Assembly: GCA_964536865.1 (NCBI GenBank)
Contig: CAZHYN010000002.1
Coordinates: 64,608 to 128,607, forward strand
Direction of reading: 5' to 3'
From: an uncultured Planctomycetia bacterium
GTDB lineage: Bacteria; Omnitrophota; Gorgyraeia; Duberdicusellales; 4484-171
Length of the DNA: 64,000 bases
Shown: one piece after another, positions 5,116-32,297 of the stretch
How the letters are laid out: each line of letters begins with the position of its first letter
Position numbering within the stretch: the first letter of the stretch is position 1
Made by a program: the position numbers and the translations under genes
The notes under the pieces: model-generated
Told to the model about the DNA's origin: nothing
Database searches by the model: none
The model's input: only the letters and a program-made list of their open reading frames with translations

Positions 5116-6358
5116 TAAATTCAGGGTAAAGAGGGAAATCTTCCAGTAATCTGTGAACTTCTCTCTTTATCTGATCTAACTTTTGAGAATCATCCCGATA
5201 TCTAACAGCTCTATCTATAAAATCAGAAATTATATCCATTTCTTTTTCTTTCATTCCTCGGGTAGTTACTGCAGGAGTTCCTATTCTTATCCCACTGGTA
5301 ATTTTTGGAGGATTGGGATCAAAAGGTATAAGGTTCTTATTTACAGTAATATCCACCTCCTCTAAAATGTCAGCACATTCTTTCCCTGTTAAATCCTTGG
5401 GACGTAAGTCCACCAGGAAGAGATGAGTATCTGTACCTCCACTTACTATGCGATAACCTCTCTTTTCTAGAGATTCTGCAAAAGCTCTTGCATTATCCAG
5501 AATTTTCCTCTGATACTCTCTAAATTCCTCAGTAAACGCTAACCCAAAAGCAACCGCTTTAGCAGCGATTATATGCATAAGAGGACCGCCTTGAACACCA
5601 GGAAATACTGCACTATCAATTTTTTTGGCGAACTCTTTTCTACACAGAATAAACCCTGCTCGTGGTCCTCTTAACGTCTTATGTGTGGTAGAGGTTACAA
5701 AATCTGCCAAGGGGGTGGGGTTAGGATAAAATCCTGCTGCTACCATCCCAGCAAAGTGAGCCATATCTACTAGAAAAAGTGCTCCTACTCTATCACAAAT
5801 TTTACGAAACTTTTCAAAGTCAATTATCCTAGGATAAGCGCTAGCCCCAGCAATAATCAGCTTGGGCTTATGTTTTAAGGCTAACTCCTCTATCTCATTG
5901 TAATCCAAACTCTCAGTTTCACGGTTTAATCCATAAGCTATCACATTGTAAAATTTTCCACTAAAATTTAAAGGGTGACCATGAGAGAGATGCCCTCCAC
6001 AAGCTAAATCCATAGCTAAAATTGTTTCCCCTACTTTCAAGGTAGCTAACATTACTGCCATATTTGCCTGTGTCCCTGAATGTGGCTGAACGTTGGCATG
6101 CTCGGCACCAAATAGTTTCTTTACTCTCTCTCTAGCTAAATCTTCAACTTCATCAACAAATTGGCAACCTCCGTACCAGCGAGCACGGGGATAACCTTCG
6201 GCATACTTATTAGTAAGTGGGGAGCTAGCAGCTTCCAAAACTGCTAAAGGAGCAAAGTTTTCACTAGCAATAAGTTCAATTTGACTCTTCTGCCTTTTGA
6301 TTTCTCTTAAAATACTTTTGTATACTTGAGGATCGATCTCCTTAAGATACTCAAACAC
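5102..6358 (-). CDS. glyA: Serine hydroxymethyltransferase
   Basis: [15 protein letters not shown]-lysine motif; full-length SHMT similarity. Confidence 0.95.
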
Positions 6359-21740: not shown

Positions 21741-22006
21741 GCCATCCCTCTTGAGCCATTTTCATAAATCTTACACGTTCCTCTTTATCCATCTCTTCTA
21801 CCTTCACTTCAACTCTTACATCTTCATCCTCTTTTTTCAAAGCTTCTTCAATGCTGGTTATTAAGTAATCTTTAAAATGAAACCTTGCTTTCTTCTATAT
21901 TTATATCTTTAATCATTCCTAACTCAAAAAGGCTATAGGCAATCTCAGGATGCTCAACACTTTTTAAAGCCTCCTCCATCCTAATTCTTTTACTTCTCTC
22001 AACCAT
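21733..22006 (-). pseudogene. Frameshifted, degenerate DUF59 (MIP18/SufT-like Fe-S assembly) remnant
   Basis: ATG 22006 with SD GGGAGGG gives MVERSKRIRMEEALKSVEHPEIAYSLFELGMIKDINIEESKVSF then a stop. A frame shifted at the TTTT run (~21874-21884) continues KDYLITSIEEALKKEDEDVRVEVKVEEMDKEERVRFMKMAQEGWRG*. The central CP/Cys motif is absent. Confidence 0.4.
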
Positions 22007-22159
22007 AAACCCTCCCCTATTTAAATTTCTCCCTCCAAAATCTTTGTAATTATTAATATCCTGGTAGGAAGGGAAAGAGCTTTAAAGAAATCAGTAACTT
22101 TCCTCAAATCCAATCTTTCTATCTATCCCCTCCTGATTGGTTTATGATATTTGAATATT

Positions 22160-22187
22160 CTTATATCATAAGAAAAAAATATGTCAA
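22160..22187 (-). promoter_or_regulatory. Sigma70-type promoter (-35 TTGACA, 16-bp spacer, extended -10 TGaTATAAG) driving the DUF59-remnant / HD / UDG gene string
   Basis: Read directly on the minus strand. -35 at 22182-22187, -10 at 22160-22165. Confidence 0.45.
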
Positions 22188-22188
22188 T

Positions 22189-22434
22189 AAATTTACGGCT
22201 GGAGTTTCCCCATTTTTCCAGCTATCTGGCAAAGATTTAAAAATATTTAAATTTTTTACCTCAAAAAGTTCTTGAAAATATTGGCTTTTCAAAATTTTGG
22301 GGAAACAGTTTCCCCATTTTTTAAGAATAAAAATTTAGCGGAAGGGTCCAGATTTTAATTTTTTTAACTCCTTATATTATAATAAGTTACATAATTTTAT
22401 AGATAAATTATGGGGAAACTCCAAATTTACGGCT
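22189..22434. repeat. Structured repeat region. A 12-bp direct repeat AAATTTACGGCT (22189-22200 and 22423-22434) flanks inverted 13-bp repeats GGAGTTTCCCCAT (22201-22213 / 22410-22422). A perfect palindrome GGGGAAAC-AG-GTTTCCCC sits in the centre (22299-22315).
   Basis: Exact matches in the sequence. The proximal copy sits 11 bp upstream of the -35. Confidence 0.6.
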
Positions 22435-22624
22435 TGTGGATGCAAACATCCTATAATCACAACTTTACCTCTATCTATATCAGAGTTGTTGTAGCTTCCA
22501 ATTTCTCATCTTCTATTTTGTCGAGCTTCTATTCAAAAGAACGCTTACTTCTTTTCGAATAAGTTCAAATACTCTTTCTTCTAAATCTCGTAGAATACCC
22601 CCACAACAGATAAAAATCAAAAGT

Positions 22625-22993
22625 TTACAGGGGCTGGGCTTCTTTTAATTTTTCCAGCTCTTCTATAGTCTTTTCCGCAACAATTTTTTCTTTATTATAA
22701 TGCTTTATCATCCGCTGCAAGCATTTCCCTTTTTCTTTAACATCACCAAGATACTTAGCGCAAAGTTCCATAAATTTCTTTGTCTGTTCCACGTTATTTT
22801 TTACGTCCTCCGGTATCTTCTCGCTATCATGCCTTACCGCCTCATTGGGGCATGCGCTATGGCAAATACCACAATGGATGCATTCTTCCATATTTATCTT
22901 TGCTTTTCCATCCTCCATTGAAATTGCCCCTACAGGACATTTCTCTACGCATATTCCGCAACCAACACATCCATCTTTGTCAACCCATGGCAT
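22625..22993 (-). CDS. 2x[4Fe-4S] ferredoxin with a C-terminal helical extension
   Basis: CVGCGICVEKCP and CIHCGICHSACP clusters. Confidence 0.8.
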   Translation of the reverse strand: MPWVDKDGCVGCGICVEKCPVGAISMEDGKAKINMEECIHCGICHSACPNEAVRHDSEKIPEDVKNNVEQTKKFMELCAKYLGDVKEKGKCLQRMIKHYNKEKIVAEKTIEELEKLKEAQPL

Positions 22994-26346: not shown

Positions 26347-27168
26347 TTATCTTTCTAAGTATGCTATTATCTTCTCTATTATTTCATCTGTAACTTTAGA
26401 AGCAGCTAAATCTTTATTAAAATATACAAATGGTTTGCCTGAATCAGAAAGCTTAACAATTTCAGGCTCAACCGGTATTCTCCCTAAGAAAGGAACATTC
26501 AACTTTCTCGCTGAAGCTTCTGCCCCTCCCCTACCAAACAAATCTATCTCTTTTCCACAATAAGGACAAATGAAACCACTCATATTCTCTATTATCCCAA
26601 TTACAGGAACGTTTAACTCTTTAGCAAACAATACGCTCTTGCGGGAATCTAAAGTAGCTACATCCTGAGGAGTAGTAACAACTACTGCTCCATTCAGGTT
26701 TGGTATAAGCTGACACACGCTTAAAGGTTCGTCTCCCGTACCTGGAGGAGAATCTATTACTAAATAATCAAGTCTTCCCCAATTTACATCAGATAAGAAT
26801 TGCTTAATTACGCCCATCTTAAGAGGGCCCCTCCATATAACAGGCTTCTCCTGGTCTTTGCCGACAAAAGCAAGGCTAATTGCCTTAAGATTAGGAAGCA
26901 CTTTTATAGGCTCAATACCCTTATCTGAACCTGTAACCCTTGCTCCCTCTACTCCCAGCATTTTAGCAATATTAGGGCCATGAATATCCACATCTAATAT
27001 ACCAATTTGCTTACCCCTAAGAGCTAAACTGTAGGCTAAATTTACAGCTATGGTAGTCTTTCCTACTCCACCTTTCCCACTTATAACAATAATCTTATAG
27101 TTTATGCCGCACATTTTCTCCTTAAGACGTTCGTCTTGGGCTATCTTCTCTTCATTTATATTCTGCAT
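26347..27168 (-). CDS. Mrp/NBP35 (ApbC) family Fe-S cluster carrier ATPase
   Basis: GKGGVGKTT P-loop; CPYCG cluster-bridging motif. Confidence 0.85.
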   Translation of the reverse strand: MQNINEEKIAQDERLKEKMCGINYKIIVISGKGGVGKTTIAVNLAYSLALRGKQIGILDVDIHGPNIAKMLGVEGARVTGSDKGIEPIKVLPNLKAISLAFVGKDQEKPVIWRGPLKMGVIKQFLSDVNWGRLDYLVIDSPPGTGDEPLSVCQLIPNLNGAVVVTTPQDVATLDSRKSVLFAKELNVPVIGIIENMSGFICPYCGKEIDLFGRGGAEASARKLNVPFLGRIPVEPEIVKLSDSGKPFVYFNKDLAASKVTDEIIEKIIAYLER

Positions 27169-27192
27169 TACTTCCCTCCTGAAAACAGAAAG

Positions 27193-28053
27193 TTATGTAA
27201 TCTCTTCCTCTAATCTATACCAGATTTTAGTAACCTCTCTCTTAGCTTCTGTATCCTGGTATTCTATAATTGTTTTTCCTTCTACCATAGCCTTTACTAC
27301 AGACTCGTCAAATTTTATTTTGCCAATTATTGGAATATTATTAATCTGGCAGTAATTTTCTATTCTTTCAGTAACTTCAGTATTTAAATTAAATTTATTT
27401 ATTATCAGTTTAACAGAAACTCCAAAATGCTTAGCTACCTTAATAACTCTATCTGCATCATGCAAGCCTGATAAAGTAGGCTCAACCACCACTATTGCAT
27501 AATCTAAGCCTGATAAAGAAGCAATTACCGGACATCCTATCCCTGGTGAACCATCTATAATTATCAAACTACAATTTTCTTTCTCGGCTATTTGCTTTGC
27601 CTTTTCCCTGACCAAGCTAACGAGTTTGCCTGAGTTTTCTTCAGCTACTCCCAATCTGGCATGGATTAATTTACCAAATCTTGTATTAGATATAAACCAC
27701 TCTCCACAAATCTTTTCCTCCATTCTAATAGCCCCAGCAGGACAAACGTAGCTACAAAAACAGCAACCTTCACAGGAAATAGGGTCAACCACAAAATCCT
27801 CAGTTATAGCAGAAAAACGGCATACAGAGAGGCATTTTCCACAGCGTTGGCAAAACTTCTTATCAATCTCTGCGACTTTACCACTTTTAAACTTATGTCT
27901 TTCTATAATTTCAGGTTTAAGCAAAAGATGTAAATCTGCTGCGTCTACATCACAATCAGCAAAAACAGCATCCTTAGCCAAAGAAGCAAAACCAGCAGTA
28001 ATCACAGTCTTACCTGTCCCGCCTTTTCCACTAATAATTCCAATCTGCTTCAT
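27193..28053 (-). CDS. MinD/ParA-superfamily ATPase with inserted 2x[4Fe-4S] ferredoxin domain (COG1149 type)
   Basis: GKGGTGKT P-loop; CQRCGKCLSVC and CEGCCFCSYVCP clusters. Confidence 0.8.
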   Translation of the reverse strand: MKQIGIISGKGGTGKTVITAGFASLAKDAVFADCDVDAADLHLLLKPEIIERHKFKSGKVAEIDKKFCQRCGKCLSVCRFSAITEDFVVDPISCEGCCFCSYVCPAGAIRMEEKICGEWFISNTRFGKLIHARLGVAEENSGKLVSLVREKAKQIAEKENCSLIIIDGSPGIGCPVIASLSGLDYAIVVVEPTLSGLHDADRVIKVAKHFGVSVKLIINKFNLNTEVTERIENYCQINNIPIIGKIKFDESVVKAMVEGKTIIEYQDTEAKREVTKIWYRLEEEIT

Positions 28054-28886
28054 TTTACCAATTCTTTAATCTTATAATAGAGAATTTTAAACTTTTCTCT
28101 ATATTCAGGAAATCCTTCTATAAGAGGGATGCCTTTTGAATAAGCAACTGCTATTTCTTTTTTAAAAGGAATCTGCATAAGAATAGGGAGCTTCTTTTGT
28201 CTACAAAACTCATCTACTTTGTTATCACCCAATTCAGACCGATTAATAATTACACCAAAAGGAATCTTAAGTTTTCTCAACATCTCCACCGCTAAAGCCA
28301 AATCATTAAGGCCAAAAGGGGTAGGCTCAGTAACTAAGATACAAAAATCACTCCCCTTTACTGCTTCAATAACAGGGCAGGAAGTACCGGGAGGAACATC
28401 AATAATAACATTTTTACCAGAATTTATATGGGCTTTGACCTGGCTAATAAGGGGAGGAGAAATCGCTTCACCAATATTAAGCCTTCCTCCCACAAATTCT
28501 AAATCGTTTTTTCTACCTATTTCAATAACACCTATTTCCCTCTCAACCTCTTTAATAGCTCCTTGAGGACAAAAGAAGCTGCAAGCTCCACAACTATGGC
28601 AAAGTTCTTTAAAGACTAAAACATCCTTATTCTTTATTACCGCAATAGCTTTATAAGCACAGACTTCTGCACACTTTCCGCAGAAATTGCACTTCTCCTT
28701 ATCTATCTGAGGAACCAGGACAAAAGCTTTTACTTTCTCTGTTATCTGAGGCTTTATAAATATATGAGAGTTAGGCTCCTCTACATCACAATCTAAAAGC
28801 TGGGCAGAAGGTAGAGAAAGAGCTAAATTTACAGCAATAGTAGTCTTTCCTGTTCCACCTTTACCTGAAGCAACTGAAATAACCAT
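28050..28886 (-). CDS. MinD/ParA-superfamily ATPase with inserted 2x[4Fe-4S] ferredoxin domain (COG1149 type); paralog of the gene at 27193-28053
   Basis: GKGGTGKTT; CNFCGKCAEVC and CHSCGACSFFCP. Confidence 0.8.
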   Translation of the reverse strand: MVISVASGKGGTGKTTIAVNLALSLPSAQLLDCDVEEPNSHIFIKPQITEKVKAFVLVPQIDKEKCNFCGKCAEVCAYKAIAVIKNKDVLVFKELCHSCGACSFFCPQGAIKEVEREIGVIEIGRKNDLEFVGGRLNIGEAISPPLISQVKAHINSGKNVIIDVPPGTSCPVIEAVKGSDFCILVTEPTPFGLNDLALAVEMLRKLKIPFGVIINRSELGDNKVDEFCRQKKLPILMQIPFKKEIAVAYSKGIPLIEGFPEYREKFKILYYKIKELVK

Positions 28887-28985
28887 AGTTTATATAATTT
28901 GATGATAAGCCATCATTATCTGCTAAAACTTATAAGATATCCCCAAAGAGGTGGGTCTTCTGGAGGATAAAACCTCTTCTATCTA

Positions 28986-29198
28986 TTACCCACGAACCAT
29001 CCTGGTTCCACACTTAGGACAATTCAAGCTATAACAAGGAACACCTACCTGATGAGGCACTCTCATCCCACAACTAGGACAAACACAATTTCCTCCTGGA
29101 CCTGCACCGGGACGATTTCCACCCATTCTACCTCTACCTCTACCACCACCGCTGCCTCTACCTCCTCCAATTGGGCCTCTTCCATCTCCAAAAGGCAT
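28986..29198 (-). CDS. Small Gly/Arg-rich protein with C-terminal CxxC..CxxC zinc ribbon
   Basis: GGGRGSGGGRGRGRMGG low-complexity N-terminus; CPSCG...CPKCG. Confidence 0.5.
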   Translation of the reverse strand: MPFGDGRGPIGGGRGSGGGRGRGRMGGNRPGAGPGGNCVCPSCGMRVPHQVGVPCYSLNCPKCGTRMVRG

Positions 29199-29212
29199 CT
29201 TTTACCTCCTTT

Positions 29213-29530
29213 TTAGGCTCTACGAGAATCATTGGAAAGTTTATCTATTCGAGCTAAAACAGAAAAAAGGGTTTCTCTTAACTTCCCAAGTTCATCTTTA
29301 ATTTCTTTTACTTCTCTATCTTTATTTGCTTTTTCAGAAGAAACCATCCTTATTGCCTGAAATGGACAAAATCTTGTGCATACTCCGCAACCTACACATT
29401 TATCCTCATCAATCCAGGGCCTCCCTCTCACCACTCTTATAGCACCTTGGGGACAACTCGAAATACACTGAAGACAACCCCTGCATATACTTAAATTAAC
29501 TACAGCTTTTTTAGATTCTCTAATGCTCAC
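29213..29530 (-). CDS. 2x[4Fe-4S] ferredoxin-like protein with coiled-coil C-terminal tail
   Basis: CRGCLQCISSCP and CVGCGVCTRFCP, then EVKEIKDELGKLRETL heptads. Confidence 0.7.
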   Translation of the reverse strand: MSIRESKKAVVNLSICRGCLQCISSCPQGAIRVVRGRPWIDEDKCVGCGVCTRFCPFQAIRMVSSEKANKDREVKEIKDELGKLRETLFSVLARIDKLSNDSRRA

Positions 29531-29846
29531 ACTTATCTGCGCTTTCTTTAAGAACCCCTTTTATAAAATCGTCTATTACCTTATTGATTTCTCCCTCAGC
29601 AAAAATAACCTGGATATTTTTTTCTCTGAATAACTCCTGAGCTCTTGGACCCATACCTCCGCAGATTATCACATTTACCTCCATCTTTGAAAGATATTCA
29701 GGCAAAAAACCTGGAGTATGACCAGGATTAGAAATAGTCTTTCTTTGCTTTACGCTTTGGCCCTCAGCATCAACAATCTCATACTCAAGACATCTTCCAA
29801 AATGAGAACTTACTAAATCTCCCTCTTTAGCTATGGCTATCCTCAT
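29520..29846 (-). CDS. NifX/NifB-like dinitrogenase FeMo-cofactor-binding family protein (COG1433, MTH1175-like)
   Basis: MRIAIAKEGDLVSSHFGRC...IICGGMGPRAQELF. Confidence 0.75.
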   Translation of the reverse strand: MRIAIAKEGDLVSSHFGRCLEYEIVDAEGQSVKQRKTISNPGHTPGFLPEYLSKMEVNVIICGGMGPRAQELFREKNIQVIFAEGEINKVIDDFIKGVLKESADKCEH

Positions 29847-30472
29847 TCTTCTGCTCCTTTCTCTAATTCCTGAATTCTTTTGTTTATTAGGCTCATCTGT
29901 TGTTTTAAAAAATCTAACTGCTGTTTTAAAAATTGAAGCTCCTGCTCTTTAGAAACTTGAGGTTGATTAACCTGAGGATAAAATCCTGGTTGAAAAAACC
30001 TTCCTCTTCCCATACCCATACCTCTTCCCATCCCAAAGCCAGGCATAAACCCTGGAGTTGAATAAGGTATATTTTGTTGAGGATTATTAGCTAATGCAGA
30101 AGGTCCCATCATTCCAAAGTGGCCGAGAACATTAGGGTTAGGAGTGGGGTTGAGCTGGTTTTTTTTAAATTTATCTATGGCCTCTCTTACAGTTAAACCA
30201 GCTAAACCGGTAATAACCTGTATACCTGAAGCCTGAAATACTCCAAAAGAATTAGGTCCCACATTACCAGTCAATACTGCATTTACCCCTTTATTGGCTA
30301 TAAACTGGGCACTGGATATTCCTGCTCCTGAAGGAGAACTAATATTAGGATTAGAGAGACTTTCAAAACTATCCTTTTCTGTATCATAAATTATAAAATA
30401 AGCACATCTTCCAAAACGAGGATCAACCAGAGAATCTAAATTTCCCCCCTGAGAAGTCACACATATCTTCAT
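29843..30472 (-). CDS. NifX-like (Nitro_FeMo-Co) domain fused to a Gly/Met/aromatic low-complexity linker and a C-terminal coiled coil
   Basis: MKICVTSQGGNLDSLVDPRFGRCAYFII, then GFMPGFGMGRGMGMGRGRFFQPGFYP, then KEQELQFLKQQLDFLKQQMSLINKRIQELEK. Confidence 0.7.
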   Translation of the reverse strand: MKICVTSQGGNLDSLVDPRFGRCAYFIIYDTEKDSFESLSNPNISSPSGAGISSAQFIANKGVNAVLTGNVGPNSFGVFQASGIQVITGLAGLTVREAIDKFKKNQLNPTPNPNVLGHFGMMGPSALANNPQQNIPYSTPGFMPGFGMGRGMGMGRGRFFQPGFYPQVNQPQVSKEQELQFLKQQLDFLKQQMSLINKRIQELEKGAEE

Positions 30473-31479: not shown

Positions 31480-31929
31480 TTAGCTACAATTTGAACATAA
31501 ACCGTAAAAATGAATTTGATGAGTCTCTATTTTAAAATTATGTTTTTTAGATAATCTTTCTTCTAAACCCTTTATTAATTTTTGTTCATCCTCTACAAAA
31601 TCTTTATAATCAATTATCTTCCCACACTTTCTGCAAATTAAATGGTGATGATGTTCTATACCTGGTCCCTGGCTTAATTCAAATCTGGCCCTTCCGTCTC
31701 CAAACTCATATTTCCTTACCAGGCCCATATTAAAAAGAAGTTCTAAAGTTCTGTAAACTGTAGTAAGCCCTATCCCCGGATACCGCTTATGAACTTTCAG
31801 GAAAATATCCTCAGCACTAAGGTGCTTTTTTTCTTTAGTCAAAACATCCAAGATAACCTGCCTGGGAAAAGTCCACCTAAAACCACAACCTCTAAATCTT
31901 GCTTCTAACCATCTCGGGCCAAAAGGCAT
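31480..31929 (-). CDS. Fur-family metalloregulator (Fur/Zur/PerR)
   Basis: Winged-helix ...GLTTVYRTLELL...; HHHHLICRKCG and C-terminal CSNC metal sites. Confidence 0.85.
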   Translation of the reverse strand: MPFGPRWLEARFRGCGFRWTFPRQVILDVLTKEKKHLSAEDIFLKVHKRYPGIGLTTVYRTLELLFNMGLVRKYEFGDGRARFELSQGPGIEHHHHLICRKCGKIIDYKDFVEDEQKLIKGLEERLSKKHNFKIETHQIHFYGLCSNCS

Positions 31930-31944
31930 AAAACTCCTTCCTTA

Positions 31945-31961
31945 TTGAAAATGATTTTCAA
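31945..31961. promoter_or_regulatory. Predicted autoregulatory Fur-family operator: TTGAAAATGATTTTCAA (plus-strand sequence), overlapping the predicted +1 region of the regulator's own promoter
   Basis: Perfect palindrome between the -10 and the RBS AAGGAAGGAG. Confidence 0.6.
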
Positions 31962-32011: not shown

Positions 32012-32024
32012 CTGGAGTTTCCCC
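32012..32024 (-). promoter_or_regulatory. GGGGAAACTCCAG motif 11 bp upstream of the -35, identical in sequence and spacing to the copy at 22199-22211
   Basis: Exact 13-mer shared, with the same 11-bp gap to TTGACA in both promoters. Confidence 0.5.
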
Positions 32025-32236
32025 AAAATTTTTAAGCCAGTAAAGAGAAGAGGAAGAGCTGTTTTTCGGTACTTTGCAATTTTCTTTCCTTCCACGGCCA
32101 CTCCATCTTATATTAAATAGAATTCTAAATATCCCCAAGGCTAAGCAATAGTGTTTGAAGGGTGATATCTGAAAGAATCTTTTTGCCTTTTCATAAATCT
32201 TCTTAAGAAGAATATTTAATCCCAAATTTTTCATTA

Positions 32237-32297
32237 CCTGCCTGACGGCAGGCCTGCCCGCTGATGTTTACCCCGCCCTTTCCTTGAAAGGGCGGGG
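32237..32297. repeat. GC-rich tandem hairpins (CCTGCC-TGAC-GGCAGG and CCCCGCCCTTTC-ctt-GAAAGGGCGGGG) downstream of the LPS gene block; copy A of a repeat family
   Basis: Strong stems in an AT-rich background; homologous to the element at 46944-47022. Confidence 0.55.

Follow-up and report, generated by a model that had tools for sequence, protein, structure and literature searches.

Several insertion sequences (ISs) of the IS4 family are accompanied by miniature derivatives, among them IS10, IS50/Tn5, IS231 and IS186. For two of these, target preferences are known: a G/C-rich motif in the case of IS186, and GGG-N5-CCC in that of IS231. The locus described here lies at 22189-22434 of a 64,000-nucleotide stretch of a Candidatus Omnitrophota genome (the window). 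It resembles the IS4 family in that its full-length relatives encode a DDE_Tnp_1 transposase with Y-2-R-3-E-6-K, and in the combination of short terminal inverted repeats (TIRs), target duplications of ~8-12 bp and internal-deletion derivatives that retain both ends. It differs in that the relatives' transposase scores far under the curated IS4 and IS701 cut-offs, which places it in an unnamed lineage, in that a TIR-like internal palindrome lies ahead of the RBS, and in that the family is positioned orientation-specifically beside TTGAC hexamers. To our knowledge, nothing similar to this orientation-specific, TTGAC-adjacent position is known for IS4 members. Elements that choose landmarks are found elsewhere, including yeast Ty3 at Pol III start sites, Tn7 at attTn7 and group IIC introns after terminators. 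Common to these and to the family studied here are a fixed spacing from the element end to a landmark of the neighbouring gene and harmless 'safe-haven' insertions; the difference is that the landmark here is a sigma-70 -35 hexamer and the enzyme a DDE transposase. Among bacterial MITEs, the Correia elements of Neisseria and MITEAba12 (PMC6382973) allow for a comparison. They and the window element are alike in being small, non-coding, TIR-bounded, flanked by a target duplication, intergenic and promoter-proximal, and presumably in being mobilised in trans by a related IS. The window element differs in that its miniature form has two documented copies so far, in that it derives from another transposase family, and in that the adjacent promoter is host DNA past the duplication and is not made by the element end.

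Repeat architecture of the locus

The first-pass annotation had described 12-bp direct repeats that bracket inverted repeats, with a perfect palindrome midway. Both sets of repeats are borne out: the exact direct repeat AAATTTACGGCT has two copies in total within the 64-kb window, and GGAGTTTCCCCAT and its reverse complement ATGGGGAAACTCC (22201-22213 and 22410-22422) have no further exact copies there. The perfect inverted repeat in fact extends to 14 nt (TGGAGTTTCCCCAT at 22200-22213 and ATGGGGAAACTCCA at 22410-22423). Chance cannot account for an exact 12-mer placed against each arm of an exact inverted repeat. The palindrome had been placed correctly but read as GGGGAAAC-AG-GTTTCCCC, with one G too many for the true form listed in Table 1. 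The core AGTTTCCCCAWWWTT is present in four copies of alternating orientation at the locus and in a fifth copy at 32014, and GTTTCCCC is observed six times in the window against 1.7 expected, with four of the six within 220 bp. An inverted repeat TTGAAAA-N7-TTTTCAA, noted earlier beside the palindrome, does exist at 22272-22292, but it does not hold up as a meaningful feature and is attributed to chance, as the AT-rich window contains 17 perfect 7-N7-7 inverted repeats and in the second copy of the element, described below, this one is disrupted. Weak motif matches at 6024, 36976, 44210 and 49604 of the window lack a TIR context and were discarded. A subdivision of the locus into tandem duplicated halves was likewise dropped, as the interiors align at the AT-rich level alone and the IS architecture supersedes it.

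Table 1. Coordinates of the features at the locus, at its flanks and at the solo copy (positions in the window).
Feature	Position	Strand	Remarks
Putative sigma-70-like host promoter	22160-22187	-	TTGACA 22187-22182, 16 nt, TATAAG 22165-22160
Direct repeat AAATTTACGGCT, left copy	22189-22200	.	12 nt, exact
8-bp TSD core ATTTACGG	22191-22198	.	If termini are CT..AA, as in relatives
Whole non-autonomous element (MITE-like deletion derivative)	22199-22424	-	Alignment with full-length relatives and the second copy (L172)
IRR GGAGTTTCCCCAT	22201-22213	+	Exact inverted repeat; CT before it (22199-22200)
Internal palindrome TGGGGAAAC-A-GTTTCCCCA	22298-22316	.	9-1-9; two TIR-core copies
IRL GGAGTTTCCCCAT, read on the minus strand	22410-22422	-	Transposase-promoter end; TT before it (22424-22423)
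Direct repeat AAATTTACGGCT, right copy	22423-22434	.	12 nt, exact; inside Lactamase_B pseudogene remnant
Lactamase_B pseudogene remnant GSYNNSDIDRGKVVIIGCLHPQAVNL	22423-22498	-	tblastn and DNA alignment to relatives' LactB; insertion target
DGC (PF08859) remnant	22525-22638	-	N-terminal 14 aa fused to C-terminal 23 aa
IRR CTGGAGTTTCCCCAA of truncated family member	32012-32026 (remnant 32012-32240)	-	IS-end match
Transposase 3' end	32097-32231	-	aa 352-396 of the L102 protein (last ~45 matched codons), 64% identity

Full-length relatives and their transposase

The TIR pattern TGGAGTTTCCCCAWWWTT was scanned across one genome per GTDB species, yielding at least 120 loci. The chance expectation for this pattern over the whole GTDB collection is ~140, and the matches depart strongly from randomness: several MAGs have the same sequence inside the motif on 3-7 contigs, often at contig ends, with differing outer flanks, and many of the matches listed have a second, inverted copy 83-334 bp away. 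At one locus (L102), two motif copies 1,438 bp apart flank a 416-aa ORF that matches PF01609 (DDE_Tnp_1; 2.3e-13). Its best NCBIfam models are IS4 and IS701, with 54.2 bits for NF033591 against a cut-off of 152 and 45.4 for IS701 against 150. Since these scores fall under every curated cut-off, including the one that defines the IS4 family, the assignment is made at the IS4/IS701 superfamily level only. The Y-2-R-3-E-6-K signature of IS4-family enzymes is found in the relatives as YLTRWKCEESFRFLKQEY (L102) and YLTRWKVEESIRFLKQEY (L082). About 2,000 homologues of this transposase are detected at E <= 1e-20, most of them ~414 aa long and encoded on stand-alone contigs of 1.4-1.6 kb, and NCBI names some merely 'transposase [Candidatus Omnitrophota bacterium]'. 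Transposase fragments adjoin the motif in eight further fetched loci, including L082, L070, L052, L142, L103 and L118, and full-length relatives with flanks are available for two elements, IS-a (L152-L161) and IS-b (L162-L171). GGAGTTTCCCCA is therefore the terminal inverted repeat of a widespread IS of ~1.44 kb in Omnitrophota and other uncultured phyla.

Read on the transposase strand, the family layout consists of IRL, ~110 nt with the transposase promoter region, the palindrome, an RBS, the transposase gene (~414 aa), ~20 nt and IRR. The IRL has the form YT-GRAG-TTTCCCCAWWWTTT. In IS-a, the palindrome is the same 19-mer TGGGGAAACAGTTTCCCCA that is found in the window and stands ahead of AAAACACAAGGAGG..ATG (with its surroundings, AAAAATGGGGAAACAGTTTCCCCAAAACACAAGGAGG..ATG); its centre base on the transposase strand, which is the minus strand of the window, is T and not A. 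Variants in L102, L143, L040, L082 and IS-b keep a stem of 6-7 bp, and a variant is also present in L172. The minus strand of the window from 22424 to ~22290 is homologous, by alignment, to the IRL-to-palindrome region of IS-a, L102 and L143, and the block TATAAGGAGT (22376-22367) is shared with this region of the relatives.

Some of the relatives show features of their own. IS-a sits between an outer-membrane-protein gene and a promoter TTGACA-16-TATAAT, behind which an apparent FMN riboswitch and then ribBA follow, and its target is nearly palindromic (TTGTCAA-GGG-[GAATTTTATAT]-TGC-TTGACAA). On three IS-b contigs (L162, L163 and L171), the IRR is followed by 8-9 nt and then by the IRL of the same IS, and the 8-nt spacer of L163 (CGTTCGTT) equals the sequence that adjoins the IRR at the L169 insertion site. 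These junctions could represent a circular or tandem-dimer transposition intermediate, or an assembly artefact; such an intermediate would be unusual for an IS4-like cut-and-paste element. A scan of viral contigs with the TIR pattern returned 15 single matches, which is about the chance level. At one of them (L019, IMGVR_UViG_3300018080_006279), the match lies next to part of a family transposase (aa 271-389, 47% identity), and the IS is thus also present on a contig classed as viral.

A miniature derivative and its second copy

The segment 22199-22424 is very probably a MITE, that is, an internal-deletion derivative of an unnamed IS of the IS4/IS701 superfamily with a DDE_Tnp_1-type transposase, and the MITE-like insertion proposed in the first-pass annotation is upheld in this form. 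Its terminal inverted repeats are perfect over 13-14 nt and a perfect 12-nt direct repeat flanks them. Counted between GGAG and CTCC, the element is 222 bp long; inclusion of the dinucleotides CT and AA, its probable termini, brings it to 226 bp. No transposase-like ORF was found inside 22199-22424, where the minus strand would be expected to bear the gene. Autonomous relatives that share the TIR core and palindrome, and whose DDE transposase is intact, are represented by L102 (1,438 bp), IS-a and IS-b. In full-length relatives, the IRR is the end that follows the transposase gene, and the window IRR matches in type the solo copy at 32012 (site E) and the IRRs of L102, IS-a and IS-b, each of which adjoins TTGAC.

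The miniature form is known in two copies. JGI metagenomes, the one collection covered, were scanned for exact matches to a 30-mer of the IRL side, and one further copy (L172) was retrieved, which is 93.75% identical to the window element over 208 nt, as far as the end of the L172 contig. Its palindrome carries one change and retains a 7-bp stem. The flank of L172 is unrelated to the window locus and directly follows an exosortase/EpsI gene pair, and the deletion junction CCCCAAAATTTTGAAAAGCC is common to both. The same junction at unrelated loci indicates that the deletion occurred once and that the short form then spread, which is the defining property of a MITE.

In the window element, the transposase gene has been deleted just past the hairpin, with ~80 nt remaining between the palindrome and the IRR at 22201. 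The IRR corresponds to site A, the hairpin to sites B and C, and the IRL to site D; the four half-sites that had drawn attention to the locus are present because an internal-deletion derivative keeps both ends and the internal hairpin. The TIR cores would act as transposase binding sites, and the element would be moved in trans by the family transposase, as in IS4-family cut-and-paste transposition. The internal hairpin presumably serves the IS, maybe as an auto-repression site for the transposase or, alternatively, as a terminator that would insulate the transposase gene, given the hairpin and T-run on the antisense strand. No intact family transposase is found within the 64-kb window.

The solo copy reported at 32012-32036 (CTGGAGTTTCCCCAAAATTTTTAAG) is real. 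It represents what is left of another, truncated family member, namely the IRR and the 3' end of the transposase gene (Table 1). It lies upstream of the promoter of a fur-family gene in the order IRR-AG, GTCTTTTA, CTC and TTGACA (32000-31995). This gene (31480-31929, minus strand) has a promoter TTGACA-17-TATTAT whose start region is overlapped by a perfect 7-1-7 Fur-family box (TTGAAAATGATTTTCAA, 31945-31961; (T)TGAAAAT-G-ATTTTCA(A)). The box probably marks autoregulation. A Fur/PerR regulon, considered on account of site E standing upstream of a fur-family gene with such a box, was rejected, as the motif is an IS end and unrelated to the box.

Target-site duplication

Duplications next to the family ends allow for the definition of the termini. 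In IS-a, the 11-bp duplication GAATTTTATAT abuts GT-GTAG... and ...CTCC-AC, and duplications of 8-11 bp are found in L034, L049, L051, L064, L133, L143 and L076, where they begin two bases outside GGAG/CTCC. As these two outer bases are constant within a genome, the termini are taken to be YT-GGAG. The 12-bp target duplication claimed for the locus is confirmed as an exact 12-nt repeat, but its length as a duplication is less certain: it may comprise the 8-bp core ATTTACGG with 2+2 coincident bases (~1 in 256), or 12 bp with ends at GGAG/CTCC, and both lengths fit an IS4-like element. The predicted empty site reads TGTCAATAAATTTACGGCTTGTGGATG and is identical for an 8-bp duplication. No duplication was found in L102 or in the short IS-b contigs, probably as a result of rearranged or chimeric flanks.

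Position next to -35 hexamers

At the window locus, the IRR-AG is followed outwards by CCGTAAAT, TTA and TTGACA, with the hexamer 1 nt from the direct repeat; the minus strand accordingly reads TGGGGAAACTCC-AGCCGTAAATTT-A-TTGACA-16 nt-TATAAG. The putative promoter formed by these hexamers (22187-22160) reads into the DUF59 pseudogene and the HD and UDG genes. In both window copies, TTGACA lies 13 nt beyond ...CTCC. This spacing recurs across the family. Among the matches listed, which comprise 122 distinct flanks, TTGAC starts at offsets 13, 14 and 15 in 12, 16 and 5 flanks, respectively (33/122), and at any other offset between 0 and 54 in at most one flank each. TAnnnT follows 16-19 nt further on in 27 of the 33, also counted among the matches listed, against 7.6% in controls, and these sites look like real sigma-70 promoters. 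Wherever the type of end can be told, the TTGAC side is the IRR (L102, site E, L082, L070, L052, L118, IS-a and 7/7 distinct IS-b sites). The IRL flanks examined are without TTGAC, except for IS-a, in which TTGAC is also found beyond the IRL-side duplication copy. The mapped geometry is IRR, a duplication of 8-11 bp, 3 nt and TTGAC, and because the duplication lies between the IRR and the hexamer, the hexamer is host DNA beyond the duplication. Transposase gene and neighbouring promoter are always co-directional. The pattern ranges over Omnitrophota, Planctomycetota, Acidobacteriota, Krumholzibacteriota, Zixibacteria, Firestonebacteria, a Woesearchaeota-labelled contig and others, and the genes behind motif and TTGAC are unrelated (dnaE, a MATE pump, dusB, a response regulator, ribBA and others).

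It is proposed tentatively, and with somewhat less than even confidence, that the sigma-70 -35 hexamer guides the choice of insertion sites in this family, the two window copies included. The pattern may arise from recognition of TTGAC by the transpososome, from tethering to RNA polymerase bound at the promoter, or from a sequence preference combined with purifying selection. A search of the literature for -35-directed IS insertion, or for the TIR sequence, retrieved nothing relevant.

Host locus and gene decay

All genes around the locus are on the minus strand, and the 618 bp that appear intergenic (22007-22624) are a patchwork of decayed genes. Gene fragments make up the stretch between the Fer4 and HD genes (22007-22640, together with the DUF59 gene at 21745-22006). 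The Lactamase_B remnant (25 aa) matches approximately aa 125-151 of the LactB protein of L003; after in-silico removal of the element, the two are 55% identical over 20 aa. The right direct repeat, in reverse complement AGCCGTAAATTT, encodes ..AVNL and matches GVGNI of intact homologues, and in-silico removal of the element and one repeat copy lengthens the LactB protein match by 1-2 residues. The DNA that received the insertion was already decaying. For the host, the insertion placed ~226 bp at about -47 relative to the promoter that precedes the DUF59 pseudogene-HD-UDG operon, an effect that is predicted to be incidental at most. The DUF59/FeS_assembly_P gene itself (21745-22006) carries a frameshift in a T-run near 21872, which is the same in two independent Logan assemblies.

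Relatives show the gene orders Fer4-DGC-Trx/Grx-Cpn10-(LactB or DUF1684)-HD or YggS-LactB-HD, and element and motif are absent from the 14 related loci examined. The closest relatives are without the whole region, beyond the element alone. Two other assemblies of the locus from the same study (L001 and L002) are identical to the window, and no empty site for the window locus was found. Further along the window, 26347-30472 holds a dense minus-strand Fe-S/redox cluster with Mrp/NBP35-like genes, small ferredoxins, ORFs resembling NifX/NifB and two MinD/CbiA-like ATPases with apparent 4Fe-4S cysteine motifs; it is syntenic with variable 'redox islands' of other Omnitrophota, whose genes have been extensively reordered from one relative to another. 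Of the 32 2-kb windows, 31 have a negative GC skew (cumulative -7.35) and, between 14 and 34 kb, the minus strand carries all ORFs of at least 90 aa that are not nested in a larger minus-strand ORF. The window belongs to a single replichore and contains neither origin nor terminus. An origin of replication had been considered on the basis of one weak DnaA-like box and was rejected, since GC skew is monotonic across the window.

Alternative explanations

The first-pass annotation had also offered a regulatory reading, a three-site operator array for a dimeric regulator of GGGGAAAC half-sites. Spelled out, a host protein of this kind would bind at the three positions, loop the DNA and control the DUF59-HD-UDG and fur promoters. 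TGGGGAAACTCCAG stands exactly 11 nt from TTGACA in both window copies, the site centres are ~9 and ~10 helical turns apart and a Fur-like box lies near site E, all of which would suit such an operator array. The same motif-TTGAC geometry, however, precedes unrelated genes in dozens of genomes, where the motif is the end of a repeated, transposase-bearing element; the genes downstream of 125 motif matches, among those listed, lack functional coherence, the motif is missing from the 14 related loci, and the middle site is part of the IS interior, where it directly precedes the transposase RBS region. An operator array is thus extremely improbable. The proximal site had been said to favour regulation by abutting the -35, and its position is correct, with TTGACA 1 nt away, but it reflects a family-wide insertion property: the insertion rule of the family accounts for the very feature that made regulation attractive. 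Inversion of the 198-bp segment between the inverted repeats by a recombinase is scarcely credible. Perfect 14-nt inverted repeats ~200 bp apart and close to a promoter are what an inverton would offer, but the recognisable promoter lies outside the repeats, three assemblies show one orientation, no recombinase is encoded among the neighbouring genes examined, and the repeats are IS termini.

Whether the locus comprises more than one element was weighed on the basis of its symmetry, as each half is bounded by inverted GTTTCCCCA cores and the IS-b contigs provide examples of IRR-8/9 nt-IRL junctions. Two miniature elements side by side (A-B of ~106 bp and C-D of ~116 bp), or a tandem-dimer junction of abutted ends, are nevertheless very unlikely: in IS-a, L102, IS-b, L040 and L082, the palindrome is equally far from the IRL and directly precedes the RBS, the IS-a palindrome is the 19-mer of the window, the central copies hold 9-10 of 12 TIR bases and no spacer of duplication size, and the whole 208-nt arrangement is common to L172. 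An RNA element, in which the central hairpin would act as intrinsic terminator or attenuator and would have alternative pairing partners in the outer sites, is improbable. The 8-bp hairpin with its T6 run does score as a terminator on the plus strand, its folding energy is around -11 kcal/mol (-10.6 to -11.8) and the outer sites could pair with either arm. On the other side, no plus-strand gene was found before or after the hairpin, searches of the locus, site E and the whole window gave no Rfam match, and the fold z-scores are only -1.4 and -2.0. Moreover, the hairpin travels with the IS, in which its terminator orientation is antisense to the transposase gene, and a terminator role would serve the IS and be compatible with a MITE.

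Implications

As a kind of object, the element is ordinary. Its resolution as a miniature IS derivative keeps this repeat cluster from being labelled an sRNA or a regulatory site in annotations. For an abundant, unnamed IS lineage of uncultured phyla, the ends (YT-GGAGTTTCCCCAWWWTT), the target duplication and the internal hairpin are now defined, which is useful for the annotation of MAGs and for understanding why such assemblies fragment; most of the ~2,000 transposase homologues are on contigs broken at the element. If the position next to -35 hexamers reflects true target choice, the family would represent a bacterial DDE transposon with promoter-directed 'safe-haven' integration. Real targeting of this kind would be a possible source of a promoter-seeking integration tool, and it would give a transposon a way to multiply in compact genomes without striking genes.
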